In this document: positions 3,958 to 45,880 of the stretch, piece by piece
Layout of the letters: each line of letters opens with the position of its first letter
Numbering within the stretch: position 1 is the first letter of the stretch
Position numbers and translations under genes: made by a program
Notes under the pieces: model-generated
Database searches by the model: none
Told to the model about the DNA's origin: nothing
What the model saw: the letters and a program-made list of their open reading frames with translations, nothing else
Source: a virus
Lineage: Duplodnaviria; Heunggongvirae; Uroviricota; Caudoviricetes
Strand: one strand, 5' to 3'
DNA: 45,880 bases
Virus record (IMG/VR): IMGVR_UViG_2870484749_000003
Span: 1-45,880 of that record

Positions 3958-3958
3958 A

Positions 3959-4645
3959 TCACTCTCCTTTGATGCGAATGCCAGCGGCGCGGGAATCATT
4001 CCATCGCTTTACTTCTTCACGAATTACGTCAATGCATTCTTTCGAATCCATTAGGTAATCTTCATCAAAAAGCCTTTCCTGTTCGTTTTCTATCGCAACA
4101 ATGATTGCTTCAACTAACTTTTGTGCCTGAGAACCACTTTCTAACTCTGCAATGCGCTTCTCTGCGGCTTCCAGCTTCTCGCGCATATCGTCAACGTACT
4201 CGACCAGAGATCCGCCAGCAGGAATTTCGCACTCCTCGACCAGTTGGAAGTAGATATCAGCTGCGGCCCGTGTGTTGCTATGCCTAGCGTCGCCCATCTC
4301 ACCTTCACGAAGAGCATCGCGTTCGGCGGTAAGATTGGCTATTTTGCTGTCTTTGCCTTCCAGCTCAACGCGCAGCTTCCCAACAGTAAGAGCAATATCC
4401 TCGTTCTCCTGGTCGCGGCTTTTGATGTATTGCTGGTTTCTTTCCCGTTCATCCAGAAGCGCCAGCACGGTTTCTGGTCCGGCCAGAAATTTGAAGGCGT
4501 TGAGCGCATCAATATCCACACCGTAATCTTTAAGTTCTTGTTCACTTAACAAATCATCATCAGCTGGCAACATTAACAGGCGTTCCATTGCTGGAATTGC
4601 ACGCTCTGCCTTTTCACGCAGTGCCTGATAGTTAATTTTGCTCAC
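3959..4645 (-). CDS. Ea22-like coiled-coil early protein
   Basis: Acidic, coiled-coil rich 228 aa protein in the early-left operon; family assignment from recollection only. Confidence 0.5.
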   Translation of the reverse strand: MSKINYQALREKAERAIPAMERLLMLPADDDLLSEQELKDYGVDIDALNAFKFLAGPETVLALLDERERNQQYIKSRDQENEDIALTVGKLRVELEGKDSKIANLTAERDALREGEMGDARHSNTRAAADIYFQLVEECEIPAGGSLVEYVDDMREKLEAAEKRIAELESGSQAQKLVEAIIVAIENEQERLFDEDYLMDSKECIDVIREEVKRWNDSRAAGIRIKGE

Positions 4646-5117
4646 TGGTCGCCTCCTTCATAAAAATAATCCAGTGGGTCTTGTCACCCTTTCCTGTTCG
4701 TTGACCGATAACAGGCTTTCTGTCGGTCAGTGCCAATATCTGGCGAACAGGTATTTGCGTTTCATTCCATTTAAAAATCAGAACGCCGTATGGACGCAAC
4801 ACACGAAAGGCTTCTTTAAATCCCTGCCGCAAATCATCACGCCAGGTATCTTTATTCAGCCGTCCATATTTCTTTCCCATCCAGGCGTTATCACCAACAC
4901 GCTCAAGATGCGGAGGGTCGAATACAACAACCGGAAACGATGCGTCTGCAAATGGTAATGCACGAAAATCTGCTATCAGGTCAGGGCTAATTATCAGCCG
5001 TCGCCCATCACACAATGTGTGCTCTTCCTTTCTGATATCGCCAAATATCGCCCGGTCGTCCTTCTTATCGAACCAGAACATGCGACTGCCACAGCACATG
5101 TCGAGGATTGACTGCAT
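4632..5117 (-). CDS. putative SAM-dependent methyltransferase (small, phage-type)
   Basis: DMCCGSRMF (motif I-like) and FDPPH (motif IV-like) in a 161 aa protein. Confidence 0.55.
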   Translation of the reverse strand: MQSILDMCCGSRMFWFDKKDDRAIFGDIRKEEHTLCDGRRLIISPDLIADFRALPFADASFPVVVFDPPHLERVGDNAWMGKKYGRLNKDTWRDDLRQGFKEAFRVLRPYGVLIFKWNETQIPVRQILALTDRKPVIGQRTGKGDKTHWIIFMKEATSEQN

Positions 5118-5123
5118 GTCCAG

Positions 5124-5603
5124 TCACTGGTTGCCTCCTTTGCGAAGCTCAGCGGCGAAGGCTACTGCGTGATCATGATGTTCAAGTGTGTATGCACACT
5201 CCGCAAACATCTCCACGCCCTGCGCCCGCACTTCCGCCAGGAAAGCGTCGGTAGCTGGCGTTTCGCTGTGGTGCAGGGCATCATTAATAATCATCGCAGC
5301 AACTCCGGCCTGCCCTGCATCCGTGACCGACACATGCTCAAGAGTTACAGCCATTGCATGTTTCAGCCCCGCATTCTCCGCCGCCAGCGCCGAAAACTTC
5401 TCGTGTGCCAACTTAACAGCCGCATCAGCCTGCTTAATTGACTCAATCGCTTTCTGTTGGTCTTCGGCCAGCGCCGCGCACTTGGCCTCAGCTTCAGCAA
5501 ATTTACGCACCAGGTACTCAGCGTTTGTTTCGTTCACTTTCAGATCTCGCGGTACACATTTTCCGCGAAGAAACCCTTCCATTTCGAAAACATTCATGCG
5601 CAT
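5124..5603 (-). CDS. hypothetical phage protein
   Basis: 159 aa ORF in operon context; no recognisable motif. Confidence 0.5.
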   Translation of the reverse strand: MRMNVFEMEGFLRGKCVPRDLKVNETNAEYLVRKFAEAEAKCAALAEDQQKAIESIKQADAAVKLAHEKFSALAAENAGLKHAMAVTLEHVSVTDAGQAGVAAMIINDALHHSETPATDAFLAEVRAQGVEMFAECAYTLEHHDHAVAFAAELRKGGNQ

Positions 5604-6130
5604 TTGCGTAACCCCGATAACTCGTTAAAACGTTCCATAAACATCCCGTAGGCATGGCCTGGTGACAGTGGAATAACTTTGAACATCTCTGTCGCCGGGA
5701 TACCTTCCAGTACAGGCCAGAAAGAACCATCATCAAGCCCGAGATCGCTGCGTTCGGTTGCCAGCATAATGAGATCGGCATATTTCACTGGCGTGCTCAT
5801 AACAGGAGGTAACCCGTATTTCTCACGGATTACGGCGTCTATTTTTTCTTCCATCCGTTTATAGTCAGGAAGAAGTCGTTTCAGTGGTGCGGGGATGTCC
5901 TGGCAATATGCTTCTGTTGCATCATGCATTAAAGCTTCAAAAGCAAATTCCTGTGGCACCAGCTGGCTGCAAAGCACCGCATGTTGGGCGACACTGTAGA
6001 AGTGTGAAAGATGTCCTGCAAAGCGACAGATATTTGAAAGGGAAATCGCGATATCGTTAATAACGATGTCGTCTTTATTTATCCTGTCATAATAAAAATG
6101 CTTCCCGGAAAAAGTTTTAATAAATGACAT
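5594..6130 (-). CDS. HD-domain phosphohydrolase (YfdR-like 5'-deoxynucleotidase family)
   Basis: HD-type motifs (VAQHAV, ALMHDATEAY); start taken at MSFIKTF with a GGAG RBS. Confidence 0.65.
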   Translation of the reverse strand: MSFIKTFSGKHFYYDRINKDDIVINDIAISLSNICRFAGHLSHFYSVAQHAVLCSQLVPQEFAFEALMHDATEAYCQDIPAPLKRLLPDYKRMEEKIDAVIREKYGLPPVMSTPVKYADLIMLATERSDLGLDDGSFWPVLEGIPATEMFKVIPLSPGHAYGMFMERFNELSGLRKCA

Positions 6131-6254
6131 TTTGTTCTCCACGTATATGCGCTGCACCGCGCTGAATTCGGGTAAAAGGAAGCCCTCACCGTCCGGCGAT
6201 TATTGAGTCAATTACATTTCCATAAATGCCCCCGTAGGGGCGGTTAGTTTCTCC

Positions 6255-6358
6255 ACAAAACAGAGAAGAACACCTGCGGTGGCAGCCGCCCGGATGGATT
6301 GGATTATGAGCCCGTCGTCCGGTGATGCCCTTCTCTGTTTTGTAAAAAGAGCGGTACC
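6255..6358 (-). promoter_or_regulatory. candidate nut/put-like RNA element: boxA-like CGCTCTTTTTACAA followed by a large hairpin closed by a perfect 14-bp inverted repeat
   Basis: On the minus strand, GCTCTTTTTACAA resembles boxA (GCTCTTTAACAA); arms acaaaacagagaag (6255-6268) and cttctctgttttgt (6330-6343) enclose 61 nt; lies in the ORF-free leader of the early-left operon. Confidence 0.3.
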
Positions 6359-6542
6359 AGCCGGAAGCAAGTGTACAAACTGGTACCGCCAAAGCAGTGG
6401 CTGTTGTGGTGACCGGTGCTGATCTCCGGCTTGCGGTTATTTCAGACTCTCACGGGCGTTTAATTGCCCCGCCGAACAGCTCTTTTCCGCAATAGCTGCA
6501 ATGTCTTTCGCGCATCAGCCTGCGCATTCACCACAACGCTGA

Positions 6543-6651
6543 GAGCATTGCCGGTGTCCGAATCGAACGGACCTTTTCCCTGCCCAACCCTCCCATCTGA
6601 ATGGGACTGTCTGGAATTGAACCAGCACTTATGCCTTGCTCGTCAATGCTC
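6543..6651 (-). ncRNA. candidate structured RNA (~109 nt) closed by an 8-bp stem, with three internal hairpins, two carrying tRNA T-loop-like sequences
   Basis: Closing stem gagcattg/caatgctc; minus-strand hairpins CUGG-UUCAAUU-CCAG, CCCAU-UCAG-AUGGG and GUCCG-UUCGAUU-CGGAC; no canonical cloverleaf could be drawn. Confidence 0.25.
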
Positions 6652-6891
6652 TCATCGTTGCGTCCTGGTCTCTTCCCAAGCGTCAAACCGAATCGCCACG
6701 CTGGTTAGGCGTCTTATCAGCATCCTCATTGACTTGCACATTCCGGCTACCTGGTTTGTTTGCCCGAGCAAGGAGTGGATTATCCCCTTTAACGTCCCCA
6801 GACCGCTAACGACGCATGTGCCATACGCCGTGTTACAACCAAATTTTGTTAGTACCTTGTTTGTTTGTCTGGAAAGAAAGATAAAATGAAG

Positions 6892-6930
6892 TTGCGCATT
6901 ATGCAAGTGTTTTTGTTGCGAGATATGCAA
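6892..6930. promoter_or_regulatory. candidate left operator sites
   Basis: TTGCGCATTATGCAA (6892-6906) and TTGCGAGATATGCAA (6916-6930) share the architecture of TTGCGCGTTAAGCAA at the cI/cro intergenic region. Confidence 0.45.
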
Positions 6931-6937
6931 TTTAAAG

Positions 6938-6966
6938 GGTAATGAAAAGCCACCTTTGGGTGGCTA
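6938..6966 (-). terminator. rho-independent terminator downstream of the cI-like gene
   Basis: agccacc-tttg-ggtggct hairpin followed on the minus strand by tttcatt. Confidence 0.55.
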
Positions 6967-6985
6967 ATTGATGAGGAGGTAAGGG

Positions 6986-7678
6986 TTAATTGTGTCGCTT
7001 AAGGGTTTGTGACTGGCTGATTAAGACCTTTCCAAAGACCATAAACCGGTGTTCATTTTCGCTGGTAATTCCCCATTCACGGTAAATCTGGTTATCAGAA
7101 ATCACCAGTAGTTTGTCAGGTATCATTTGCAGTCGTTTGACATAAATTTTATCATCAAAACCAAATACATAGATACCATCTCCATCAAACTGATTGATAC
7201 TGACATCAACGAAGATGAGATCTCCTGGCTCAATGGTTGGACACATACTGTCCCCACGAACGTTGATAACTTTAATGTGATTGGCTGGCCGTCCGCCAAA
7301 CATCGATACAGCATTATCAGTTCTGTATTCAATGGCATGAATCACATCAATGACATCACCGCCCTGGATAAGGCCATTTCCCGCACTGGCACTGACATCC
7401 AGCATTTCAATACGGAATACATCCTTCACCTGCGCAACATCCTCACTAATACTGTTTTTACATACAGTATTACTTTTGACGTCTGAGGTAAAGAGATCAG
7501 CAATATCAACACCTAAGCTCCTGGCAATATTACTCAGGGCTTGTTCAGTGAATTGTTTCTGCTTACCTGTTTCCAGGCGTGAGATATTCGCCGCATCCAC
7601 TCCTATTGCTTCAGCGAGATCGGCGATTTTCATGTTCTTCGCCTGGCGAAGTTGTCTGACTCGGTTTCCTATGTTCAT
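6986..7678 (-). CDS. CI-like prophage repressor (HTH plus S24 LexA-like autopeptidase domain)
   Basis: N-terminal HTH (IADLAEAIGVDAANISRLETG); C-terminal GDSM serine and KR lysine motifs; possible Ala-Gly cleavage site in SASAGNG; divergent from the cro-like gene. Confidence 0.9.
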   Translation of the reverse strand: MNIGNRVRQLRQAKNMKIADLAEAIGVDAANISRLETGKQKQFTEQALSNIARSLGVDIADLFTSDVKSNTVCKNSISEDVAQVKDVFRIEMLDVSASAGNGLIQGGDVIDVIHAIEYRTDNAVSMFGGRPANHIKVINVRGDSMCPTIEPGDLIFVDVSINQFDGDGIYVFGFDDKIYVKRLQMIPDKLLVISDNQIYREWGITSENEHRFMVFGKVLISQSQTLKRHN

Positions 7679-7698
7679 GCGTTTATTACATTTCTTTA

Positions 7699-7770
7699 TT
7701 GCGCGTTAAGCAAATCAACTTGCGCAAAATATTTGCGTGAAATAATATGCTTATCACGCAATATGTGGAG
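7699..7770. promoter_or_regulatory. candidate right operators and divergent promoters
   Basis: TTGCGCGTTAAGCAA (7699-7713), TTGCGCAAAATATTTGCGTGAA and TCACGCAATATG between the repressor and cro-like starts. Confidence 0.5.
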
Positions 7771-7775
7771 GTTAT

Positions 7776-8036
7776 ATGCAATCACCATTACGGAATGTGC
7801 GTAAGGCGCACGGATTTACTTTGCAGCATGTTGCTGCTGGCGTTCAGGTCAATCCAGCGACGCTGAGTCGTATTGAAAGACTGGAACAAATTCCATCTAT
7901 CGATCTTGCAGAACGTCTGGCCAATTTTTTTAAGGGTGAAATCAGCGAAATGCAGATTCTTTATCCGGCACGTTTTCAATCTAGCCAAAACCAGAATGGG
8001 TTTAAACCACAGGAACAGGAGGTAAGCCGTGGGTAA
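7776..8036 (+). CDS. Cro-like HTH (XRE family) regulator
   Basis: 86 aa, HTH FTLQHVAAGVQVNPATLSRIE, divergent from the repressor. Confidence 0.8.
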   Translation: MQSPLRNVRKAHGFTLQHVAAGVQVNPATLSRIERLEQIPSIDLAERLANFFKGEISEMQILYPARFQSSQNQNGFKPQEQEVSRG

Positions 8037-8586
8037 TCATCACTGGAAAGTGGAAAAACAGCCTGAGTGGTACGTGAAAGCTGTCAGAAAAACTATCGCG
8101 GCGTTGCCGGGGGGTTACGCTGAAGCTGCTGAGTGGCTGGATGTAACAGAGAACGCATTATTTAACCGCCTTCGTGCCGATGGCGATCAGATTTTCCCGC
8201 TGGGATGGGCAATGATTTTACAACGTGCTGGTGGCACTCACTTCATTGCCGACGCTGTGGCGCAGTCTGCAAATGGCGTCTTTGTGTCTCTTCCTGACGT
8301 CGAGGATGTGGACAATGCCGATATTAACCAGCGTTTACTGGAAGTCATTGAACAGATCGGCAGTTATTCAAAACAGATTCGTTCGGCAATCGAAGACGGT
8401 GTAGTGGAACCGCATGAGAAGACAGCAATTAACGACGAGCTGTACCTCTCAATTTCGAAGCTGCAGGAGCATGCAGCACTTGTCTACAAAATTTTTTGCG
8501 TTTCAGAAAGTAATGACGCCCGCGAGTGTGCAGCTCCGGGCGTCGTGGCGTCGATTGCTTCTGGTTGTGGAGAAACTAACGCATGA
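8029..8586 (+). CDS. hypothetical early-right protein (possibly a CII-like regulator)
   Basis: 185 aa ORF overlapping the cro-like stop; product assignment is a guess from position. Confidence 0.5.
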
Positions 8587-8921
8587 ACAGTTTAACAACA
8601 CACTACCGTCGCTCGCAACTGATTGCGCTTCCTGTACCGGGTGGAAAAGCGAAGGTGGAGTATTGCTATGCAGTAAATGTACCAGGTGACAGGGAAATTG
8701 TAACCCACAGCTTTGCTGAGTGGGCTGTGGGGGATTTCAACCGGCAGAAGGAGACAGTCCTTTGCGACAAGTTAACCGCTGGTTCAAAGATCACTACGGA
8801 GTGCCCGTCAGAGTCATTCGTTGGGAGCCGGAAACACAACGGGTTATCTACCTCCGTGAAGGCTATGAGCATGAGTGCTTCAGCCCGCTCGAACAGTTTC
8901 GTCGTAAATTCAGGGAAATAG
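8583..8921 (+). CDS. hypothetical protein; only the N-terminal half looks protein-like
   Basis: ATG overlaps the upstream stop (ATGA coupling); C-terminal half is low-complexity and overlaps the 8720 ORF in another frame. Confidence 0.35.
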
Positions 8922-8941
8922 AGGTCGGTCATGAGCACTAA
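8720..8941 (+). CDS. hypothetical protein, alternative frame; C-terminal region looks protein-like
   Basis: [45 protein letters not shown]; stop overlaps the start of the replication gene. Confidence 0.35.
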
Positions 8942-9872
8942 ATTAACCGGCTATGTATGGGATGGTTGCGCTGCGTCAGGCATGAAATTATCCAGCGTGG
9001 CAATTATGGCCCGCCTGGCTGATTTCAGTAATGACGAAGGTGTGTGCTGGCCATCAATTGAAACTATTGCCCGTCAGATTGGCGCGGGGATGAGTACCGT
9101 CAGAACGGCTATCGCACGGCTGGAAGCAGAAGGCTGGTTAACGCGTAAGGCGCGTCGCCAGGGTAACCGCAATGCGTCGAATGTTTATCAGCTTAACGTT
9201 GCGAAGCTTCAGGCAGCGGCATTTTCTCAACTGTCAGATTCTGACCCGTCAAAATCTGACGCATCAAAATCTGACACGTCAAAATTTGATGCGTCGAAAT
9301 CTGGCAAAAAAGCGGGTTTTCACCCGTCAGAATCTGGCGGGGATCCGTCAGTAAAATCAAAACATGATCCGTCAGATAAAAAACCTTCTCGTCCGGACGC
9401 TTCGCAACCGGACACGCAGACGGCTGAACAGGATTTTTTAACTCGCCATCCTGATGCGGTTGTATTCAGCCCTAAAAAGCGCCAGTGGGGAACGCAGGAT
9501 GATTTGACCTGCGCACAGTGGCTCTGGAAAAAAATCATTGCCCTGTACGAGCAGGCCGCCGAATGTGACGGCGAGGTGGTTCGTCCCAAAGAACCGAACT
9601 GGACAGCCTGGGCAAACGAAATTCGCCTGATGTGTGTGCAGGATGGTCGTACTCACAAACAAATCTGCGAGATGTACAGCCGCGTCAGCCGCGATCCGTT
9701 CTGGTGCCGTAACGTGCTCAGCCCGTCGAAGCTGCGGGAAAAATGGGATGAGCTTTCCCTGCGCTTATCGCCGTCCATCAGCACATACACAGAAAAACGC
9801 GAAGACCCGTATTTCAAATCCAGTTACGACAGCGTGGACTACAGCCAGATCCCGGCAGGATTCAGGGGGTGA
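8931..9872 (+). CDS. replication initiation protein (O-like, N-terminal winged HTH), with iterons inside the gene
   Basis: N-terminal wHTH (PSIETIARQIGAGMSTVRTAIARLEAEGWL); SKSDASKSDTSKFDASKSG peptide repeats correspond to DNA iterons, as with lambda ori inside O. Confidence 0.75.
   Translation: MSTKLTGYVWDGCAASGMKLSSVAIMARLADFSNDEGVCWPSIETIARQIGAGMSTVRTAIARLEAEGWLTRKARRQGNRNASNVYQLNVAKLQAAAFSQLSDSDPSKSDASKSDTSKFDASKSGKKAGFHPSESGGDPSVKSKHDPSDKKPSRPDASQPDTQTAEQDFLTRHPDAVVFSPKKRQWGTQDDLTCAQWLWKKIIALYEQAAECDGEVVRPKEPNWTAWANEIRLMCVQDGRTHKQICEMYSRVSRDPFWCRNVLSPSKLREKWDELSLRLSPSISTYTEKREDPYFKSSYDSVDYSQIPAGFRG
9231..9384. repeat. iteron array (putative replication origin)
   Basis: Five contiguous ~15-bp repeats of type nCGTCAAAATCTGAC (9231-9305), then degenerate copies CCGTCAGAATCTGGC, CCGTCAGTAAAATC and CCGTCAGATAAAAAAC. 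Confidence 0.65.
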
Positions 9873-34666: not shown

Positions 34667-37600
34667 ATGGGTAAAGGCAGCAGTAAGGGGCATACCCCGC
34701 GCGAAGCGAAGGACAACCTGAAGTCCACGCAGCTGCTGAGTGTGATCGATGCCATCAGCGAAGGGCCGGTTGAAGGTCCGGTGGATGGATTAAAAAGCGT
34801 GCTGCTGAACAGTACGCCGGTGCTGGACAGTGATGGGAATACCAACATCGCCGGTGTCACGGTGGTGTTCCGGGCCGGTGAGCAGGAGCAGACTCCGCCG
34901 GAGGGATTTGAATCCTCCGGCTCCGAGACGGTGTTGGGTACGGAAGTGAAATACGACACGCCGATCACCCGGACCATCACGTCGGCAAACATTGACCGTC
35001 TGCGTTTTACTTTCGGCGTGCAGGCACTGGTGGAAACCACCTCAAAGGGGGACAGGAATCCATCGGAAGTCCGCCTGCTGGTTCAGATACAACGTAACGG
35101 TGGCTGGGTGACGGAAAAAGACATCACCATTAAGGGTAAAACCACTTCACAGTATCTGGCCTCGGTGGTGGTGGATAACCTGCCGCCGCGCCCGTTTAAT
35201 ATCCGGATGCGCAGGATGACGCCGGACAGCACCACAGACCAGCTGCAGAACAAAACGCTCTGGTCGTCATACACCGAAATTATCGATGTGAAACAGTGCT
35301 ACCCGAACACGGCACTGGTCGGCGTGCAGGTGGACTCGGAGCAGTTCGGCAGCCAGCAGGTGAGCCGTAATTATCATCTGCGCGGGCGTATTCTGCAGGT
35401 GCCGTCGAATTATAACCCGCAGACGCGGCAATACAGCGGTATCTGGGACGGAACGTTTAAACCGGCATACAGCAACAACCCGGCCTGGTGTCTGTGGGAT
35501 ATGCTGACCCATCCGCGCTACGGCATGGGGAAACGTCTTGGTGCGGTGGATGTGGATAAATGGGCGCTGTATCTTATCGGCCAGTACTGCGACCAGTCAG
35601 TGCCGGACGGCTTTGGCGGCACGGAGCCGCGCATCACCTGTAATGCCTGGCTGACCACACAGCGTAAGGCGTGGGATGTGCTCAGCGATTTCTGCTCGGC
35701 GATGCGCTGTATGCCGGTATGGAACGGGCAGACGCTGACGTTCGTGCAGGACCGACCGTCGGATAAGGTGTGGACCTATAACCGCAGTAATGTGGTGATG
35801 CCGGATGATGGCGCGCCGTTCCGCTACAGTTTCAGCGCCCTGAAAGACCGCCATAATGCCGTTGAGGTGAACTGGATTGACCCGGATAACGGCTGGGAGA
35901 CGGCGACAGAGCTTGTGGAGGACACGCAGGCCATTCTCCGTTACGGTCGTAACGTCACGAAGATGGATGCCTTTGGCTGTACCAGCCGGGGGCAGGCACA
36001 CCGCGCCGGGCTGTGGCTGATTAAAACGGAGCTGCTGGAGACGCAGACCGTGGACTTCAGCGTGGGTGCCGAAGGGCTTCGCCATGTACCGGGCGATGTC
36101 ATTGAAATCTGCGATGATGACTATGCCGGTATCAGCACCGGCGGGCGCGTGCTGGCGGTGAACAGCCAGACCCGGACGCTGACGCTCGACCGTGAAATCA
36201 CGCTGCCATCTTCCGGTACCACGCTGATAAGCCTGGTTGACGGGCAGGGGAGTCCGGTCAGCGTGGAGGTCCAGTCCGTCACCGACGGCGTGAAGGTGAA
36301 AGTGAGCCGTGTTCCTGACGGCGTTGCCGGATACAGCGTATGGGGGCTGAAGCTGCCGACGCTGCGCCAGCGCCTGTTCCGCTGCGTGAGTATCCGTGAG
36401 AACGATGACGGCACGTATGCCATCACCGCCGTGCAGCATGTACCGGAAAAAGAGGCCATCGTGGATAACGGGGCGCACTTTGACGGCGACCAGAGCGGCA
36501 CGGTGAATGGTGTCACGCCGCCAGCGGTGCAGCACCTGACTGCCGAAGTCACCGCAGACAGCGGGGAATATCAGGTGCTGGCGCGCTGGGACACGCCGAA
36601 GGTGGTGAAGGGGGTGAGCTTCCTGCTCCGTCTGACCGTAACAGCGGACGACGGCAGTGAGCGGCTGGTCAGCACGGCCCGGACGACGGAAACCACATAC
36701 CGCTTCAGGCAACTGGCGCTGGGGAACTACAGGCTGACAGTCCGGGCGGTAAATGCGTGGGGGCAGCAGGGCGATCCGGCGTCGGTATCGTTCCGGATTG
36801 CCGCACCGGCAGCACCGTCGAGGATTGAGCTGACGCCGGGCTATTTTCAGATAACCGCCACGCCGCATCTTGCCGTTTATGACCCGACGGTACAGTTTGA
36901 GTTCTGGTTCTCGGAAAAACGGATTGCGGATATCAGGCAGGTTGAAACCAGCGCGCGTTATCTTGGTACGGCACTGTACTGGATAGCCGCCAGTATCAAT
37001 ATCAAACCGGGCCATGATTATTATTTTTACGTTCGCAGTGTGAACACCGTTGGCAAATCGGCATTCGTGGAGGCTGTCGGTCAGCCGAGTGATGATGCAT
37101 CAGGCTATCTGGATTTTTTCAAAGGCGAGATAGGGAAAACCCATCTGGCTCAGGAGCTGTGGACGCAGATTGATAACGGTCAGCTTGCGCCTGACCTGAC
37201 TGAAATCAGGACGTCCATAACGGATGTCAGCAATGAAATAACACAGACCGTCAATAAGAAACTGGAAGACCAGAGTGCGGCAATCCAGCAGATACAGAAG
37301 GTTCAGGTTGATACAAATAATAACCTGAACAGCATGTGGGCAGTGAAGCTGCAGCAGATGCAGGACGGACGCCTTTATATTGCGGGTATCGGTGCCGGTA
37401 TTGAGAACACCCCTGACGGCATGCAGAGTCAGGTGCTGCTGGCAGCAGACAGGATTGCGATGATTAATCCTGCGAATGGCAACACAAAGCCGATGTTTGT
37501 TGGTCAGGGCGATCAGATATTCATGAATGAAGTGTTCCTGAAACGCCTGACGGCCCCCACCATTACCAGCGGTGGCAGTCCTCCGGTATTTTCCCTGACA

Positions 37601-38164
37601 TCAGACGGAAAGCTGACCGCTAAAAATGCGGATATCAGTGGTAGTGTGAATGCGAACTCAGGAACGCTCAACAATGTCACGATTAACCAGAACTGTACGA
37701 TTAAGGGCATGCTGGAGGCGACCCAGGTCAGAGGGGATTTCGTTAAAGCTGTATCAAAAGCCTTCCCGAAAAAAGTCGGTACGTGGGGTAACACGGAAAC
37801 ACCAAACGGTACGGTTACAGTCACCATCAGCGATGATCATAACTTTGACCGCCAGATTATTATTCCGCCCATTATCTTTAACGGAATAGCGTATAGCGAT
37901 CCGGGAAGTGGTAATAACCCGGGAGGTACAAGATACACGGGTTATGGTTTTGAAGTTCGCAAAAACGGCGTATTAATCGCATCCAGAGAAACTAAAGGGG
38001 CCATTCCCGGTAGTTACAGTGCGGTTATTGATATGCCGAGTGGCAGGGGAAGCGTCACTCTGGAGTTTAAGATTTTCCAGAAAGGCAATCAGGGGGCAGG
38101 CAATATCACCGACTGTACGGTGATTGTGACCAAAAAGGCTGCTTCCGGCATCAGTATTCGTTGA
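34667..38164 (+). CDS. J: host specificity / central tail fibre protein J
   Basis: 1165 aa; [34 protein letters not shown]... matches lambda J as recalled. Confidence 0.95.
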
Positions 38165-38185
38165 AATTGTTATAACCCCAATAAA

Positions 38186-38212
38186 GGGCGTCAGGAATGA
38201 CGCCTTTTTTAT
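38186..38212 (+). terminator. rho-independent terminator after J
   Basis: ggcgtca-ggaa-tgacgcc hairpin then tttttta. Confidence 0.65.
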
Positions 38213-38234
38213 TGCAGAAAAGCGAGAGGTAATT

Positions 38235-38834
38235 ATGCGTAAAGTTTGTGCAGCCATTTTGTCCGCAGCCATCTGTCTGGTCGTATCCGGTGCGCCTTCA
38301 TGGGCGTCTGAACATCAGTCCACGCTGAGCGCGGGGTATCTTCATGCCTCGACGAACGTTCCCGGCAGCGATGATCTTAACGGGATTAACGTGAAATACC
38401 GCTATGAGTTTACGGACACGCTGGGGATGGTGACGTCATTCAGCTATGCAGAAGACAAGAATCGCCAGCTGACTCATTACAGCGATACCCGCTGGCATGA
38501 AGATTCCGTGCGTAATCGCTGGTTCAGCGTGATGGCGGGGCCGTCTGTGCGCGTGAATGAATGGTTCAGCGCGTATGCGATGGCGGGTGTGGCTTACAGC
38601 CGTGTTTCGACTTTCTCCGGGGATTATCTCCGCGTAACTGACAACAAGGGGAAAACGCACGAAGTGCTGACCGGAAGTGATGACGGTCGCCGCAGCAACA
38701 CGTCTCTGGCGTGGGGGGCTGGCGTGCAGTTTAACCCGACCGAATCCGTGGCCATTGATATTGCTTATGAAGGCTCCGGCAGTGGTGACTGGCGCACTGA
38801 CGGTTTCATCATGGGTGTCGGTTATAAGTTCTGA
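38235..38834 (+). CDS. lom: Lom-like outer membrane beta-barrel protein (Ail/Lom family)
   Basis: Signal peptide, alternating beta-strand pattern, C-terminal aromatic residue (GVGYKF); position after J as in lambda. Confidence 0.85.
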   Translation: MRKVCAAILSAAICLVVSGAPSWASEHQSTLSAGYLHASTNVPGSDDLNGINVKYRYEFTDTLGMVTSFSYAEDKNRQLTHYSDTRWHEDSVRNRWFSVMAGPSVRVNEWFSAYAMAGVAYSRVSTFSGDYLRVTDNKGKTHEVLTGSDDGRRSNTSLAWGAGVQFNPTESVAIDIAYEGSGSGDWRTDGFIMGVGYKF

Positions 38835-38860
38835 TTAGCCAGGTAACACAGTGTTATGAC

Positions 38861-38888
38861 AGCCCGCCGGTTCAGGCGGGCTTTTTTG
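38861..38888 (+). terminator. rho-independent terminator after lom
   Basis: gcccgcc-ggttcag-ggcgggc hairpin then tttttt. Confidence 0.7.
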
Positions 38889-38892
38889 TGGG

Positions 38893-41800
38893 GTGAATAT
38901 GGCAGTAAAGATTTCAGGTGTACTGAAAGACGGTGCAGGTAAACCGGTACAGAACTGCACAATCCAGCTGAAAGCAAAACGTAACAGCACCACGGTGGTG
39001 GTGAACACGGTGGCCTCAGAAAATCCGGATGAAGCCGGGCGTTACAGCATGGACGTTGAGTACGGTCAGTACAGCGTTATTCTGTTGGTGGAAGGATTCC
39101 CGCCGTCACATGCCGGGACCATCACCGTGTATGAAGATTCCCGACCCGGTACGCTGAATGATTTTCTCGGTGCCATGACGGAGGATGATGCCCGTCCGGA
39201 GGCACTGCGCCGCTTTGAACTGATGGTGGAAGAGGTGGCGCGTAACGCGTCCGCAGTGGCGCAGAACACAGCAGCCGCGAAGAAGTCAGCCAGCGATGCC
39301 GGCACATCAGCCCGTGAGGCGGCAACCCGTGCGACTGATGCTGCAGGCTCAGCACGTGCAGCCAGCACGTCAGCCGGACAGGCCGCGTCGTCGGCTCAGT
39401 CAGCGTCTTCCAGCGCAGGAACGGCATCAACAAAGGCCACTGAAGCATTAAAAAGTGCTGCCGCCGCAGAGTCTTCAAAAAGCGCGGCAGCCACCAGTGC
39501 CGGTGCGGCGAAAACGTCAGAAACGAATGCCGCAGCGTCACAAAAATCTGCGGCCACATCTGCATCCACCGCGACCACGAAAGCGTCAGAAGCTGCCACC
39601 TCAGCCCGGGATGCGTCGGCTTCAAAAGTGGCGGCAAAATCATCAGAAACGAGCGCAGCCTCGAGCGCCGGCAGTGCAGCTTCCTCGGCAACGGCGGCAG
39701 GAAATTCCGCGAAGGCCGCAAAAACGTCTGAGACGAATGCGGATAACAGCGCACAGGCGGCAGCAGACTCACAAACTGCATCGGCAAACTCCGCGACAGC
39801 AGCCAAAAAATCAGAAACCAACGCGAAAAATAGTGAGGCAGCAGCAAAGGTCAGCGAAACCAACGCTAAAGCGTCAGAGAACAAGGCGAAAGAATATCTC
39901 GACAAGGTCGGGGGACTCGTCAGCCCGATGACGCAATACGATTGGCCCGTTGTTACTGGTAATGAGTCTTTTTACATCAAGATCGCGAAACTTTCCGATC
40001 CCGGAAGCAACAATTGCCATGTAACGCTAATGGTTACTAACGGCGGTAACTACGGCTCCCCTTACGGAAACATTGACTTTATCGAGATCTCGGCGCGCGG
40101 TCTGCCTTCTTCGCTTACTGCGGATAATGTTTCTCGTCATCTGAGTATACGCCGCTTAGGGTCAACCGGGCTGACCGATAACAACCAGATGCGTTACGGC
40201 CTGGTTAAAGGTGACGGCTTTATTGAGGTTTGGGCCTTCCAGCGTGCATTTATCAACGGCGCAAAGGTTGCGGTACTGGCGCAGACGGCACGCACGGAAT
40301 TATACATTCCAGACGGATTTGTTAAGCAAACCGCCGCGCCTTCTGGATATGTTGAAAGCCCCGTTGTAAGGATTTACGACCAGTTAAACAAGCCGACTAA
40401 AGCAGATTTGGGTCTTTCTAATGCTATGCTTACAGGCGCTTTCGGTCTTGGCGGTAGCGGGATATCAACAACCGGCAAGATGAGCGATGTAGAGATCTTA
40501 AAAGCTCTGCGTGACAAAGGTGGTCATTTCTGGCGCGGTGATAAGCCGACCGGAAGTACGGCGACCATTTATAGCCACGGTTCTGGTATATTCTCGCGGT
40601 GCGGCGATACGTGGTCGGCGATCAATATCGACTACGGAACAGGTAAAGTCAAGGTTTACGCTGGTAACGATGGTGGACTTAATAATGGTAATTTTTCCGT
40701 CAATGAGCTATACGGAACCAAAAATAAGCCGTCGAAATCGGACGTTGGACTTGGCAACGTAACGAACGATGCGCAGGTGAAAAAATCCGGCGATAATATG
40801 TCTGGAGACCTGGCGATCATTAAAGGAACACCGTCACTCTTCCTGCGGTCAAAAAGTGGAACCGCCCATGTATGGTTCCAAAATGAGGATCAGTCGGAAC
40901 GCGGCGTTATTTGGGCGCCTACAAATACTGATACGCTTGGCGAAGTTCACATCAGGGCTAAAAACGCAAAAGGCGAATCAAGGGGTGATTTTATTGTTCG
41001 TCACGACGGGAGGGTAGAATCCCGTGATCTAAAAGTAACGTACAAAATCAGCGCAGCCACCGCAGAATTTGCAAACACATCAACTAACCCGCTTGATAAC
41101 ACTTTAAAAATTAGCGGTCCACAGCATACGCCGTTACTTTTAACGCGTTCTGGTTCTTCTGAAAATGTGTCCATTGGGTTTAAGTTAGACAACATGAACC
41201 CAAAGTATCTTGGAATTGATACTAATGGGGATCTGGCTTTTGGTGAGAGTCCTGATCAGAAACAAAACAGCAAATTGATCACGCAAGCGAAACTCGACAA
41301 GGGATTAACGATTGGTGGTCAACTGGCTTTCAAAGGTACGACAGCGTTTTCAGCCGCTGCTACGTTCAGTGCCGGGATAGCAGGAGCCATCGATCCGGAA
41401 GACATTGGCGGCCAGACGGTTGATCTTAACAACCTGACCATCATCTCAGATGTCGGGGCAATTAAATATTATTATTGTCCAACCATTGGAGGTGGTGCAA
41501 ATATCACCAACAAGCCTGACGGCGTAAACGGTAACTTTTTGCTCCGTGTAGAGTCGACTCGCAAAGTTTCTGCTTCGGATTATGCGAACATGCAAACGCT
41601 GATCAGCAACGACACAAAACGTATATACGTTCGCTTTGTTGTTGGTGGAAGCTGGGCAGCGTGGAGTCAGGTTGTTGTTTCCGGATGGAATCAGGATGTA
41701 ACCGTCAGGTCGTTAACCTCGACGACTCCATCAAAATTAGGTGGCGGGCGGATTGATGTGCTTGGAAGTACGTCAGATTATGGCAGCATGAATTGTACCG

Positions 41801-42672
41801 TTCGTGGTGTTGATAGCACTGGAACCAATTCGGCGTGGTCGGTAGGCACATCAGAAAGCACAGGCAAAAAGTTGTTCCTGAAAAACCACAGAAGCAGCGC
41901 TCAAGTGCTGTTAAATGGCGATGATGGAGCGGTTCAACTACTAAGTGGCACTGTTAACGGTGCTACAGCGCAGGCGCTAACCATCAACAAAGATGAGGTT
42001 AACTCAACTGCCGATTTAGTAATTAGAAAACAAACAGGGACTGGCAATCGTTTTGCTTTACTTAATTCAGGTAATTCAGAACTGCCAGTTAGCATCGCGG
42101 TCTGGGGGTCAAGTGATCGACAAAACGTTTTTGAGGTTGCAACGTCTGCTGCGTATCTGTTTTATGCGCAAAGAACACCAGCAGGCCAGTTGTTTGATGT
42201 AAATGGCGCTATTAATTGCACAACGCTGAATCAGTCATCAGACCGCGACCTTAAAGACGATATTCGCGTTATCAGCGACGCGACGAAAGCAATCCGCAAA
42301 ATGAACGGTTACACCTACACGCTCAGGGAAAACGGGATGCCTTATGCTGGCGTTATTGCACAGGAAGTAATGGAGGCGATACCAGAAGCTGTGGGATCGT
42401 TTACTCATTATGGTGAAGAGTTGCAAGGTCCGACCGTTGACGGCAACGCGCTACGCGAAGAAACGCGCTATCTTAATGTTGACTACGCCGCCGTGACGGG
42501 TTTACTTGTTCAGGTCGCCCGTGAAACAGATGATCGCGTTACCTCGCTGGAAGAGGAAAACACAACGCTACGTGAAAATCTGGCAACAGCAGACACCCGG
42601 ATCAGCACTCTGGAAAATCAGGTAAGCGAACTGGTTGCACTTGTCCGGCAGTTAACAGGAAGCGAACATTGA
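38893..42672 (+). CDS. stf: side tail fibre: lambda Stf-like N-terminus, Ala/Ser-rich repeats, divergent distal region, C-terminal S74-type intramolecular chaperone domain
   Basis: N-terminus MAVKISGVLKDGAGKPVQNCTIQLKAKRNSTTVVVNT matches lambda Stf as recalled; C-terminus DLKDDIRVISDATKAIRKMNGYTYTL plus coiled coil is typical of the autoproteolytic chaperone domain. Confidence 0.85.
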   Translation: MNMAVKISGVLKDGAGKPVQNCTIQLKAKRNSTTVVVNTVASENPDEAGRYSMDVEYGQYSVILLVEGFPPSHAGTITVYEDSRPGTLNDFLGAMTEDDARPEALRRFELMVEEVARNASAVAQNTAAAKKSASDAGTSAREAATRATDAAGSARAASTSAGQAASSAQSASSSAGTASTKATEALKSAAAAESSKSAAATSAGAAKTSETNAAASQKSAATSASTATTKASEAATSARDASASKVAAKSSETSAASSAGSAASSATAAGNSAKAAKTSETNADNSAQAAADSQTASANSATAAKKSETNAKNSEAAAKVSETNAKASENKAKEYLDKVGGLVSPMTQYDWPVVTGNESFYIKIAKLSDPGSNNCHVTLMVTNGGNYGSPYGNIDFIEISARGLPSSLTADNVSRHLSIRRLGSTGLTDNNQMRYGLVKGDGFIEVWAFQRAFINGAKVAVLAQTARTELYIPDGFVKQTAAPSGYVESPVVRIYDQLNKPTKADLGLSNAMLTGAFGLGGSGISTTGKMSDVEILKALRDKGGHFWRGDKPTGSTATIYSHGSGIFSRCGDTWSAINIDYGTGKVKVYAGNDGGLNNGNFSVNELYGTKNKPSKSDVGLGNVTNDAQVKKSGDNMSGDLAIIKGTPSLFLRSKSGTAHVWFQNEDQSERGVIWAPTNTDTLGEVHIRAKNAKGESRGDFIVRHDGRVESRDLKVTYKISAATAEFANTSTNPLDNTLKISGPQHTPLLLTRSGSSENVSIGFKLDNMNPKYLGIDTNGDLAFGESPDQKQNSKLITQAKLDKGLTIGGQLAFKGTTAFSAAATFSAGIAGAIDPEDIGGQTVDLNNLTIISDVGAIKYYYCPTIGGGANITNKPDGVNGNFLLRVESTRKVSASDYANMQTLISNDTKRIYVRFVVGGSWAAWSQVVVSGWNQDVTVRSLTSTTPSKLGGGRIDVLGSTSDYGSMNCTVRGVDSTGTNSAWSVGTSESTGKKLFLKNHRSSAQVLLNGDDGAVQLLSGTVNGATAQALTINKDEVNSTADLVIRKQTGTGNRFALLNSGNSELPVSIAVWGSSDRQNVFEVATSAAYLFYAQRTPAGQLFDVNGAINCTTLNQSSDRDLKDDIRVISDATKAIRKMNGYTYTLRENGMPYAGVIAQEVMEAIPEAVGSFTHYGEELQGPTVDGNALREETRYLNVDYAAVTGLLVQVARETDDRVTSLEEENTTLRENLATADTRISTLENQVSELVALVRQLTGSEH
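39230..39900 (+). repeat. degenerate tandem repeats encoding the Ala/Ser/Thr-rich tail-fibre segment
   Basis: Recurrent aaaacgtc(a/t)ga(a/g)acgaatgc units and SETNA/AKTSETNA peptide repeats; generates long spurious antisense ORFs. Confidence 0.6.
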
Positions 42673-42855
42673 TATCCTTCAAGCTCTGAAGGAGGCTGTT
42701 CCCGGTACGTTCAGACTGTTGTTGAGCTGGAGATCGCAACGGAGGAAGAGACATCGTTACTGGCGGCATGGAAAAAGTATCGGGTGTTGCTGAACCGTGT
42801 TGATACATCAACTGCACCTGATATTGAGTGGCCGGAAGAACCAGACACAATGTAA
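42673..42855 (+). pseudogene. 3' remnant of a tail fibre assembly (tfa) gene, no start codon, in frame directly after the stf stop
   Basis: Encodes ...[44 protein letters not shown], the conserved Tfa C-terminal motif; no ATG/GTG start after the stf stop. Confidence 0.6.
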
Positions 42856-42902
42856 GCGAAAAAGAAAAACCGCAGACACGACGTATGCAGGACGTGCTGC
42901 GG
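42856..42902 (-). terminator. rho-independent terminator downstream of the DinI-like gene
   Basis: Imperfect hairpin ccgcagacacgacg...cgtgctgcgg followed on the minus strand by tttttctttttc. Confidence 0.5.
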
Positions 42903-42970
42903 TTGGCTGGTGAACTTTCGATAGTGCGAGTATTGAATGATTTCCAGCCGTTACCGATTTTACGTGTTTA

Positions 42971-43219
42971 TTAGTGAACAAACCACTCGTCAGCAGACTC
43001 CCAGGTATCTTTCAGAGTCTCCTGAACAAATGTTTTTGCAGAATCTTTATCTGCGGTGCGTGTAACAGAAAGGCCATCGTTGCTGGTGGCTTTTACGATC
43101 ACCTCTACATCGTCATAACGTTTACTGATGCGTCGGGTTAATTCTTCCTTTAACGCATCCACAGCACCGGTTGGCATTTTAGTCATTTTCTCTTTGGCTA
43201 TGCAGATTTCAATACGCAT
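42971..43219 (-). CDS. DinI-family protein
   Basis: [37 protein letters not shown]...[17 protein letters not shown] resembles DinI (81 aa) as recalled; two SOS boxes upstream. Confidence 0.8.
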
Positions 43220-43232
43220 AAAAGTCCCTCTA

Positions 43233-43280
43233 TACTGTGTTTGTATACAGTGTTATTTTTAACTGTATGGATAAACAGTA
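43233..43280. promoter_or_regulatory. two tandem LexA (SOS) boxes in the promoter region of the DinI-like gene
   Basis: tACTGTgtttgtatACAGtg (43233-43252) and aACTGTatggataaACAGta (43261-43280) both fit CTGT-N8-ACAG. Confidence 0.65.
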
Positions 43281-44378
43281 TCAAGGGGTCTTATTTCTGC
43301 TCCTTTGGAGCTCTTCAAAACGATTATGTAAAGATTTCGGATACAGTTCGGTATATACCTGCCATAGCACGTTTAATGAACGATGCCCTGTAACCTGGGC
43401 TACTTCCTCAATACTAAAACCAGCCTCAAATAAGCGACTTGCCCCTTCTCTACGCAAATCATGGTATCGCAGATCCTTAATACCTAATTTGCTTCTTACC
43501 CTCTGAAATCCCGCAGTAACAGAAGTGCTGTTATATGGAAAAATGAATTCCGATTTTTTGGGCTGTCGTTGGACGATATCCCAGGCTTCCCCAAGCAAGG
43601 CTACTTTCATGTGGTTGCCTTCCTTTTTGCGTGGATCTTTCCTGTCTCTTACGAGTATAGATTTTTGTTCCTGGTCGAGATCTTCCCATCGTAACCTGCA
43701 TACTTCTCCGATTCGCATACAGGACCACACAGAAAATTTGAGGATATCAACGAACGGAATTTTTGAGCATTTATGAGTAGATCGTTGTTGAAGGCCTTCA
43801 ATGAGCATGTCCAGTTCATCAGATGCTGGTCTACGATTACGACGGTTTGATTTACCAATCAAACCAAGTTTAAGTAGATATGGACGAGCACTTTTCGCCG
43901 GGTTTGATGTGTAATTAATTCCGTATACAGGTTTGGCCGCATCCAGAACACTGCCAAGATAACTAACATCGTGGCTGACTGTTGCTGGACCTGCGCCAGC
44001 GTTGTTTCTTAGCCTGCAATGTTCAATTACGTCATTTTCTGTCAGTTCAGATAGTTTGATCGCGGAGATGTCACTATCCATAAGCAGTTCCAGCACATAT
44101 CTTTTAGTACGGCCTGCTTTACCTCCGGCATTTGGGTCATTTAAATATTTGTGTAGTAAGTCACGGACTGTAAGTCCGTCAACTGCATTTGATGATGGAA
44201 TGCCATATAGATCTAATTCCATCACTTTCTGTGTGCCCCATGTTTTGGCATGAGCATGTTTAGGGAATGTTTTGCTTTCCCTGTAAGTGATAACACCTTT
44301 TTCTTTGATAATCACATTACAGCGATAGCGTGGTGTGCCATCGGATTTTAGTCGTTTCTCTATGTTATAGTACGCCAT
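43281..44378 (-). CDS. int: tyrosine site-specific integrase (dusA-associated type)
   Basis: 365 aa with C-terminal R...HxLR...Y catalytic pattern (RYHDLRREGASRL...HRSLNVLWQVY); adjacent to and divergent from dusA. Confidence 0.9.
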   Translation of the reverse strand: MAYYNIEKRLKSDGTPRYRCNVIIKEKGVITYRESKTFPKHAHAKTWGTQKVMELDLYGIPSSNAVDGLTVRDLLHKYLNDPNAGGKAGRTKRYVLELLMDSDISAIKLSELTENDVIEHCRLRNNAGAGPATVSHDVSYLGSVLDAAKPVYGINYTSNPAKSARPYLLKLGLIGKSNRRNRRPASDELDMLIEGLQQRSTHKCSKIPFVDILKFSVWSCMRIGEVCRLRWEDLDQEQKSILVRDRKDPRKKEGNHMKVALLGEAWDIVQRQPKKSEFIFPYNSTSVTAGFQRVRSKLGIKDLRYHDLRREGASRLFEAGFSIEEVAQVTGHRSLNVLWQVYTELYPKSLHNRFEELQRSRNKTP

Positions 44379-44463
44379 TACACGACCTCGTTATTTCGGG
44401 TTCCCATAAAACGTGGGAACCTGTGCGGGAACCTAATGCGAGAAAAATAGCCTGAAATGTTCA

Positions 44464-44570
44464 AAAATGCACGATAATCATGAAACACAAAAAATTAATC
44501 AAACCAGCGTGATGCCTGAAAAAACTGGTGTTTACTGGAATTCTCGGTTTAGCATTGCTCCTATGCTCGA
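44464..44570. other. attR: prophage-supplied replacement 5' end of dusA, homologous to attL
   Basis: See attL; similarity to 1067-1174 ends at atgctcga (44563-44570). Confidence 0.75.
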
Positions 44571-45504
44571 CTGGACGGACAGACATTGCCGCTATTTCTT
44601 GCGTCTGCTTTCCCGCAATACGTTGCTGTATACCGAAATGGTGACCACAGGGGCGATTATTCACGGTAAAGGTGATTATCTGGCGTACAGTGAAGAAGAA
44701 CATCCGGTAGCGTTGCAACTGGGCGGTAGCGATCCGGCGGCGCTGGCGCAGTGTGCAAAGCTGGCAGAAGCGCGCGGATATGATGAGATCAACCTGAATG
44801 TCGGCTGCCCGTCTGACCGGGTGCAGAACGGCATGTTTGGTGCGTGTCTGATGGGTAATGCGCAGCTGGTTGCCGACTGCGTGAAAGCGATGCGCGATGT
44901 GGTGTCGATTCCGGTGACGGTGAAAACGCGTATTGGCATCGACGACCAGGACAGCTATGAATTTCTCTGCGATTTCATCAATACCGTTTCCGGCAAAGGC
45001 GAGTGTGAGATGTTCATCATCCACGCACGTAAAGCCTGGCTTTCGGGGTTAAGCCCGAAAGAAAACCGTGAAATCCCGCCGCTCGATTATCCGCGTGTGT
45101 ATCAACTGAAGCGTGACTTTCCGCATCTGACAATGTCGATTAACGGTGGTATCAAGTCGCTGGAAGAGGCCAAAGCACACCTGCAACATATGGATGGCGT
45201 GATGGTCGGGCGCGAGGCGTATCAGAATCCGGGTATTCTGGCGGCGGTAGACCGGGAGATCTTTGGTTCCTCGGATACCGATGCCGATCCGGTGGCGGTA
45301 GTGCGCGCCATGTATCCGTACATTGAGCGTGAACTCAGCCAGGGGACGTATCTCGGCCATATTACCCGGCATATGTTGGGCTTGTTCCAGGGTATTCCTG
45401 GCGCGCGGCAGTGGCGGCGTTATTTAAGTGAAAATGCCCATAAAGCGGGTGCAGACATTAATGTGCTGGAACACGCGCTCAAACTGGTGGCGGATAAGCG
45501 TTAA
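44467..45504 (+). CDS. dusA: tRNA-dihydrouridine synthase A with prophage-derived N-terminal codons
   Basis: 345 aa Dus-family TIM-barrel protein ([15 protein letters not shown], catalytic Cys region [11 protein letters not shown]); followed by pspG as in E. coli. Confidence 0.95.
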
Positions 45505-45585
45505 CTTTTCACCAAAAAGTAGTCAAATTCACCACGCCCTGCGCACCGTCGCGGGGCGTTTTGCTGTTAAATCAATAGATTATTT

Positions 45586-45602
45586 TTGGCATGATTCTTG
45601 TA
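45586..45602 (+). promoter_or_regulatory. candidate sigma54 (-24/-12) promoter of pspG
   Basis: TGGCATgattcTTGTA approximates TGGCAC-N5-TTGCA, about 35 nt upstream of the pspG ATG. Confidence 0.4.
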
Positions 45603-45637
45603 ATGCCAGCAAGAGATTTCATATTTGGGAGAGCATC

Positions 45638-45880
45638 ATGCTGGAACTACTTTTTGTGATTGGCTTTTTTGTCATGCTGATGGTCACCGGCGTTTCGTTG
45701 CTGGGCATTATCGCCGCGCTGGTTGTGGCGACGGCCATTATGTTCCTCGGCGGTATGCTGGCATTGATGATTAAGTTGCTGCCGTGGTTACTACTGGCGA
45801 TTGCGGTGGTGTGGGTTATTAAGGCGATTAAAGCACCAAAAGTGCCGAAATATCAGCGTTATGACCGCTGGCGTTACTAA
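45638..45880 (+). CDS. pspG: phage shock protein G
   Basis: 80 aa hydrophobic protein MLELLFVIGFFVMLMVTGVSLLGIIAALVV... ending ...KYQRYDRWRY at the window end; the 150 aa track ORF is an upstream over-extension. Confidence 0.85.
   Translation: MLELLFVIGFFVMLMVTGVSLLGIIAALVVATAIMFLGGMLALMIKLLPWLLLAIAVVWVIKAIKAPKVPKYQRYDRWRY

Follow-up and report, generated by a model that had tools for sequence, protein, structure and literature searches.

The DNA directly behind the side tail fiber gene stf of an Escherichia coli lambdoid prophage contains the 3' end of a tail fiber assembly gene, tfa. We read it, with a probability of about 0.85, as a non-coding piece of tfa that was joined once to an S74-ending fiber, was passed on with that fiber as a block through the lambdoid phages of E. 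coli and serves as a patch for crossovers; this figure covers the whole reading (fragment identity, single origin, spread and crossover patch). The locus is a case of ordinary phage mosaicism, with an inherited tfa pseudogene at a conserved joint. The fragment was already known, since RefSeq annotates it as a pseudogene. What is added here is that the junction most probably arose once, that about 15% of the complete genomes of E. coli have it and that the fragment probably acts as a crossover site.

The window, that is, the whole 45,880-nucleotide stretch of DNA that was analyzed, carries in its right end a prophage of lambdoid type integrated at dusA in E. coli. The genes are ordered J, lom, stf, tfa fragment, dinI, tyrosine integrase and dusA, and positions 36000-45880 are 100% identical to E. 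coli AR_0014 (NZ_CP024859). The features referred to below are as follows, with their basis in parentheses.

34667-38164, context: J (open reading frame list and Pfam)
38235-38834, context: lom (open reading frame list and Pfam)
38893-42672, plus strand: stf, side tail fiber gene, one intact open reading frame of 1259 aa (open reading frame list)
38899-39872, plus strand: conserved lambda-type proximal stf, anchor and Ala/Ser-rich region (similarity limits)
39873-42228, plus strand: variable distal receptor-binding part of stf (unrelated sequence in relatives)
42229-42672, plus strand: Peptidase_S74 intramolecular chaperone and C-terminal coiled coil (PF13884)
42561-42744, plus strand: low-diversity island of stf 3' end, stop codon, spacer and tfa fragment start (pi)
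42673-42708, plus strand: 36-bp spacer between the stf stop and the tfa homology (outside the tfa profile match)
42709-42855, plus strand: tfa 3' fragment, conserved C-terminal part of Tfa, TAA stop at 42853-42855 (PF02413)
42859-42902, minus strand: hairpin and U-tract, probable dinI terminator (fold -20 kcal/mol, z -3.3)
42971-43219, minus strand: dinI-like gene (PF06183, E 1e-19)
43281-44378, minus strand: tyrosine integrase adjoining dusA, prophage end (PF00589; RefSeq annotation)

A chaperone-ending side tail fiber and the tfa fragment behind it

The stf frame opens at GTG 38893 and closes with a TGA at 42670-42672, the true start being likely ATG 38899, as in RefSeq. The preliminary description had given the fiber a lambda-like N terminus and an S74-type intramolecular chaperone at its C terminus, and both assignments hold. 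The prophage tail fiber N-terminal domain PF08400 covers residues 3-136 (E 5e-72), and between 38707 and 39740 the nucleotide identity with lambda stf is 86%; this anchor and the position after J and lom mark the gene as a lambda-type side tail fiber. At the other end, PF13884 (Peptidase_S74) covers residues 1116-1167 of 1259 with 48.9 bits (cut-off, 22), and the motif SSDRDLKDDI aligns with SSDRRIKKDI of the solved phage fiber chain 6F45. The NCBI product name for the same architecture begins with "prophage tail fiber N-terminal domain and S74 family," while an NCBIfam search of the fiber found no family. RefSeq (NZ_CP024859) cuts stf in two, giving a "pseudogene, missing C-terminus" at 38899-39876 and an S74 peptidase CDS at 39928-42672. 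The split coincides with the mosaic module boundary near 39872 and looks like an annotation artifact, since the frame is open throughout.

Cleavage in the Peptidase_S74 family depends on a Ser...Lys dyad. Both residues are present at the expected place in the profile match, Ser1116 (codon 42238-42240) being followed five residues on by Lys1121 (S1116-D-R-D-L-K1121). Ser1116 is the predicted nucleophile, and the predicted released piece is 143 aa long. The fiber would fold with its own C-terminal chaperone, which would be cut off at about Ser1116, and a Tfa protein would be unnecessary; we infer this self-cleavage and Tfa independence from the domain match and the motif. The distal subunit of the long tail fiber of phage S16 (6F45) shares the C-terminal PF13884 at the tip of a trimeric fiber, the SSDRxxK motif and the lack of a separate chaperone gene, but the S74 domain here is joined to a lambda Stf anchor, unlike the S16 fiber, and its cleavage is a prediction. 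S74 intramolecular chaperones are also carried by other fibers and spikes, such as the K1F endosialidase fiber and T5 pb1.

Downstream, the translation of 42673-42855 continues the stf frame right after the TGA. The C-terminal end of Tfa had been described as starting directly behind this stop; the shared frame and a significant similarity to Tfa are confirmed, whereas the homology starts at 42709 and not at 42673. Residues 13-57 of the translation match positions 86-130/131 of the Caudo_TAP profile PF02413 (75.1 bits; cut-off, 22.1; E 7.7e-21). Positions 42709-42843 are 80% identical in protein to residues 147-191 of lambda Tfa (tblastn), far above chance, and positions 42724-42833 are 90% identical in DNA to lambda tfa. 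RefSeq lists 42721-42855 as "tail fiber assembly protein, incomplete, missing N-terminus" (pseudogene).

Lambda tfa, like the fragment here, lies directly downstream of stf, but lambda Tfa (orf-194) is complete and itself spans profile positions 1-130, whereas the last 45 of 131 profile positions are left here, startless and without the variable N-terminal fiber-binding domain. Since only profile positions 86-130/131 are present, the region is a gene fragment and not a member protein, despite the profile match: it has neither the full two-domain length (variable N-domain plus conserved C-domain) nor the start codon and ribosome-binding site of a translatable gene. Indeed, as the preliminary description had proposed, the remnant has no start of its own. 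Its frame contains no ATG, GTG or TTG ahead of GTG 42784 and TTG 42787, and these two, which are not preceded by a Shine-Dalgarno sequence, would yield at most 23 aa. No other Tfa-like coding region was found by tblastn in the whole window.

Junction, spacer and spread of the block

Apart from two linked polymorphisms at 42685 and 42703, the left junction does not vary among 43 unique sequences (IMG/VR loci together with reference phages and genomes). Furthermore, in the 60 IMG/VR loci that combine a lambda-type stf with the chaperone domain, the stop, the spacer and the beginning of tfa are identical as far as each contig reaches. Since all 43 unique copies share this left junction, the evidence points to a single origin of the lambda-type junction. 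The signature VQTVVELE at the left end of the fragment occurs in none of the 84 collected intact tfa genes and in none of the proteins inspected from a database of 5.8 billion, the latter negative being limited to the proteins inspected. Diversity (pi), computed over 47 unique sequences, varies along the region as follows.

42229-42560: chaperone domain, 0.093
42561-42672: chaperone coiled-coil tail, 0.022
42673-42708: spacer, 0.030
42709-42744: tfa fragment, left, 0.019
42745-42775: tfa fragment, middle, 0.167
42776-42833: tfa fragment, core, 0.090
42834-42855: tfa fragment, tail, 0.51

The junction region is low in diversity because it is a unique sequence without a recombination partner; it would show only the mutations gathered since its origin, between flanks that are mosaic. 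The fact that the fragment shares the stf frame is a 1-in-3 coincidence inherited from the single junction.

The 36-bp spacer has no identifiable similarity and no tfa profile match. It holds an AAGGAGG sequence (42689-42695) without a usable start codon behind it and is known in E. coli from one context only (803 genomes). Two derivations of the spacer were considered and rejected. Its descent from diverged tfa in the +1 frame, with a 1-nt deletion near 42706, is unsupported: the reconstructed spacer peptide aligned to intact Tfa from residue 2-3 (tblastn), but the Pfam alignment still began at position 86, with a gain of only 0.7 bits, and no intact Tfa containing such a segment was met among the inspected proteins of the 5.8-billion database. 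The other derivation, from DNA downstream of the donor's fiber gene, was dropped, as the mEp021-like phages are unrelated to this region past the stop codon.

These mEp021-like phages (mEp013, mEp554 and MagusPhagus; 18 loci of about 54 kb) carry a distal fiber and chaperone module that is 80-92% identical in DNA to the one described here. The same receptor-binding module sits there on another N-terminal anchor, with a shorter coiled coil, and the fiber gene ends in GSEE-TAA. Behind it come a terminator that belongs to this gene and an integrase; tfa sequence is absent. The mEp021-like and lambda-type sequences part exactly after GGAAGCGAA, at 42666/42667; therefore, the last codon and the TGA of stf belong to the junction. 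In the mEp021-like loci (L070-L086; for example, L070 1106-4423), the anchor exchange point lies in Ala/Ser/Thr-rich repeats (...SETNAK...EYL...).

We propose that one recombination joined an S74-ending fiber module to the middle of the resident tfa of a lambda-type phage, and that this founding event removed the distal part of stf together with some three quarters of tfa. Recombination enzymes were presumably involved in the exchange. The module would have entered the lambda-type phage from the mEp021-like side, a direction of transfer that is read only from the presence of the tfa fragment. The architecture fits such an event, and an intact tfa is absent. The fragment is very probably what remains of an exchange in which distal stf and most of tfa gave way, as the preliminary description had it. 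The S74 end, the 36-bp spacer and the tfa fragment would then have traveled together, as a unit, among the lambdoid phages and prophages of E. coli. Later changes of host range would have swapped approximately 39872-42228, while the S74 end and the tfa fragment stayed in place. The founding event would be old relative to this prophage.

At a query coverage of at least 80%, a survey of 5426 complete E. coli genomes found the chaperone domain (query 42229-42672) in 802 of them, the junction (42480-42860) in 801 and the spacer with the left part of the fragment (42673-42752) in 803. Chaperone domain, junction and spacer are linked essentially one-to-one, and roughly 15% of these genomes have them. 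The E. coli copies of the low-diversity island 42561-42744 number roughly 1360. The block is found in prophages at dusA, at bioA/ybhB (lambda att) and at prfC, as well as in the isolated phages mEp460 (NC_019716), Ayreon (MF807953) and PhiR70_1 (PV340577). These three phages and the AR_0014 prophage have the same stf architecture and the same junction, but the receptor-binding regions and downstream genes of mEp460, Ayreon and PhiR70_1 are unlike those here; in the records of the three phages, the fragment is unannotated or "hypothetical." Two scans with one genome per species (185,579 species) returned no exact match to the junction, suggesting at most that it is restricted to part of E. coli.

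Crossovers within the fragment and cargo in related loci

Matches to mEp460, PhiR70_1 and PhiR49_2 all stop at 39870-39872, and the proximal part of stf (38899-39872) appears to be the left homology arm in swaps. In mEp460 (to 41732) and in PhiR70_1, unrelated sequence takes the place of distal stf, and at least 11 sequence clusters are found upstream of the chaperone domain in 67 loci. On its other side, the block that carries these receptor-binding regions is followed by at least 15 sequence clusters, among them dinI-int, a nucleotidyltransferase/SLATT pair and a ybcY-like methyltransferase accompanied by another tfa piece.

Within the fragment, at least 10 distinct C-terminal tails occur: PEEPDTM, PTVPVME, VNPVWPPPSKR and seven that are also present in the collected intact Tfa (PAVPVME, PTNPVRE, PANPVRE, PALP, PVAPIG, PAAPVG and PEEPDTV). 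Left, middle and tail segments form 36 combinations among 43 sequences. Two left haplotypes are each seen with the same middle blocks and tails and, therefore, crossovers have taken place within the fragment. Similarity to other phages ends at 42807, 42833, 42904-6 and 42969. The pattern argues that the fragment is an active crossover site with intact tfa genes. Being approximately 90% identical to intact tfa 3' ends elsewhere, it would serve as a passive right-hand homology patch, the left-hand patch being the conserved proximal stf or the chaperone domain. With homology patches on both sides, the block could be combined with many receptor-binding and downstream cargo regions. In lambda x Rac recombinants, the right-hand crossover falls in the 95%-identical tfa region in about one-third of cases (De Paepe et al. 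2014, PMC3945230). The conserved tfa region is a crossover site in that study, like in the mosaic pattern described here, but both partners had an intact tfa there, whereas one partner here is a dead fragment.

To the right, the dinI hairpin lies directly after dinI. It was detected by folding, the consensus terminator scan being negative because of a bulge. Related phages share sequence only rightwards of approximately 42865-42898, and the hairpin would be the right border of the fiber cassette in this backbone.

Other lambdoid orphan tfa fragments (PhiR29_2, L010, strain 106 and PhiR49_2), such as the tfaX-like frame adjoining ybcY and the fragment near type III effector genes of EHEC, are startless or shortened 3' ends beside swapped or inserted cargo. 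The fragment described here differs from them in that its left neighbor is an S74-ending stf and its junction is unique to this pairing. The K-12 pseudogenes tfaD, tfaX and tfaS are further orphan tfa fragments, and public databases hold many clusters named "tail fiber assembly protein, partial." One public protein of that name (P0007) begins with ...LVGSEMCIRDS, which we take to be a translated Nextera mosaic-end adapter and which would imply adapter contamination in a public assembly. Many public tfa fragments begin near ASEHIAPLQ. A site-specific recombination site at this boundary was considered and set aside in favor of a simpler explanation, the onset of conservation between Tfa families, which reportedly begins at such a boundary.

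The related loci show a variety of genes next to tfa sequence. A ybcY-like methyltransferase gene lies on the opposite strand between two tfa 3' ends in L010 (4682-5676), L026 (4682-5681) and L171 (PhiR29_2; 3735-4765). The second tfa piece is an 89-aa tfaX-like open reading frame with its own ATG in L010; PhiR29_2 has a partial tfa CDS at the matching position, and L026 has a DNA match to the tfa 3' end only. Cargo between tfa repeats seems to be a recurring pattern. Tandem tfa 3' fragments are found in L005 (E. coli R18), at about 5722-5853 (after the S74 stf) and 6504-6640 (before dinI), with a small hypothetical gene separating them. In L003 (E. coli GF124.3; prophage at bioA/ybhB), a nucleotidyltransferase gene and a SLATT-domain gene (7534-8974) lie directly 3' of the tfa fragment and may be defense cargo. 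The cargo downstream of the fiber region in L026 includes, on the minus strand (5750-7081), a gene for a multi-pass membrane protein of 443 aa whose C-terminal region is of the GGEEF type; from its sequence, we judge the protein to be diguanylate-cyclase-like. In L090 (E. coli strain 106; prophage at ssrA), a tfa fragment with an internal stop (3980-4132) lies between the type III secretion system (T3SS) effector genes espW/espM2 and dinI; lambdoid late regions commonly end on the right with a tfa 3' end and dinI. Finally, L004 (PhiR49_2; 5412-6133) has a shorter stf of another kind, behind which come two small open reading frames without annotation (92 and 97 aa) and then a tfa fragment. This arrangement may be another chaperone solution that likewise displaced tfa.

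Alternative readings and what the fragment means

Could the region still have a product? Readthrough of the TGA would add 60 residues to the released chaperone piece, or a mini-Tfa might be made that corresponds to the conserved oligomerization domain. The frame is shared with stf and stays open in 42 of the 43 unique copies, a strong AAGGAGG precedes the fragment, and the 89-aa tfaX-like frame of L010 shows that a short Tfa-like frame with its own ATG exists elsewhere. However, no in-frame ATG, GTG or TTG follows the AAGGAGG until GTG 42784, which has no ribosome-binding site, and a readthrough extension would lie on a piece that is predicted to be cleaved off. Since the frame relation comes from one junction, its conservation is not independent evidence; moreover, a frameshift disrupts one copy, and conserved residues are substituted in several (R to S in NRVD; P to L or T after IEW). 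The variable sites of the fragment show a mild third-position excess (19:14:12), and their third-position share is 42% against 60% in the chaperone domain, a weak test of relaxed constraint that is confounded by exchange with live tfa. We explain the open frame and the third-position excess by the low age of the fragment and by its recurrent exchange with tfa alleles that still function, residual constraint being a less likely cause, and we hold expression of the fragment to be highly improbable. A small RNA of the Rfam IS009 family is just as hard to credit. The model (RF02111) matches 42612-42812 on the plus strand with 88.2 bits (E 2e-20), but this falls short of the family's gathering score, 117; confident alignment is limited to the 3' half of the model, and that half is tfa coding sequence. 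A scan of the plus strand around the match found neither promoter-like nor terminator-like sites. The match suggests, rather, that the IS009 "sRNA" family may have been built on tfa gene fragments.

The two remaining readings concern the history of the fragment. The preliminary description took the junction for the fresh scar of a module swap in this prophage and, hence, for a recent host-range switch. The swap-like architecture is in keeping with this, as is the fact that just two complete genomes are 100% identical over the exact region. Yet approximately 800 genomes have the same junction, with 2-3% diversity; it is known from several integration sites and also from isolated phages, and mEp460 has another receptor-binding region next to the same junction; many flanking contexts also argue against one recently spread clone. 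We consequently abandon the recent switch as very unlikely. Selection, in turn, might have kept the fragment as a portable right-hand homology arm, such that cassettes retaining it move more readily. About 801 of 802 genomes have kept it, crossovers fall within it, and recombination in tfa was shown experimentally (PMC3945230). Nevertheless, a junction divergence of 2-3% leaves little time for the neutral loss of a 150-bp fragment, so that its retention alone needs no selection, and there are no fragment-less copies to compare. Selection for the arm is unlikely on these grounds, though less far-fetched than a fresh scar. If it were true, a near-universal tfa patch of about 125 bp would let cassettes enter any lambdoid stf-tfa phage, and chaperone-free S74 fibers would be coupled to the lambdoid tail-fiber exchange network.

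Under the preferred reading, an inherited, non-coding fragment that serves passively in crossovers, the importance of the finding is modest overall. For annotation, it means that the "tail fiber assembly protein, partial" behind S74 fibers is one inherited pseudogene. For engineering, the natural boundaries at approximately 39872 and 42229 would be proven fusion points for chimeric lambda side fibers without a separate chaperone; an engineered fusion of the lambda Stf N terminus to the K1F fiber gives working particles (PMC11338833). For the biology of the lambdoid phages, the locus offers a base-resolution view of host-range change, in which hypervariable regions for receptor binding and cargo are bordered by conserved joints (proximal stf, the S74 chaperone and the tfa 3' end) and in which a dead gene fragment can still act as a crossover site.
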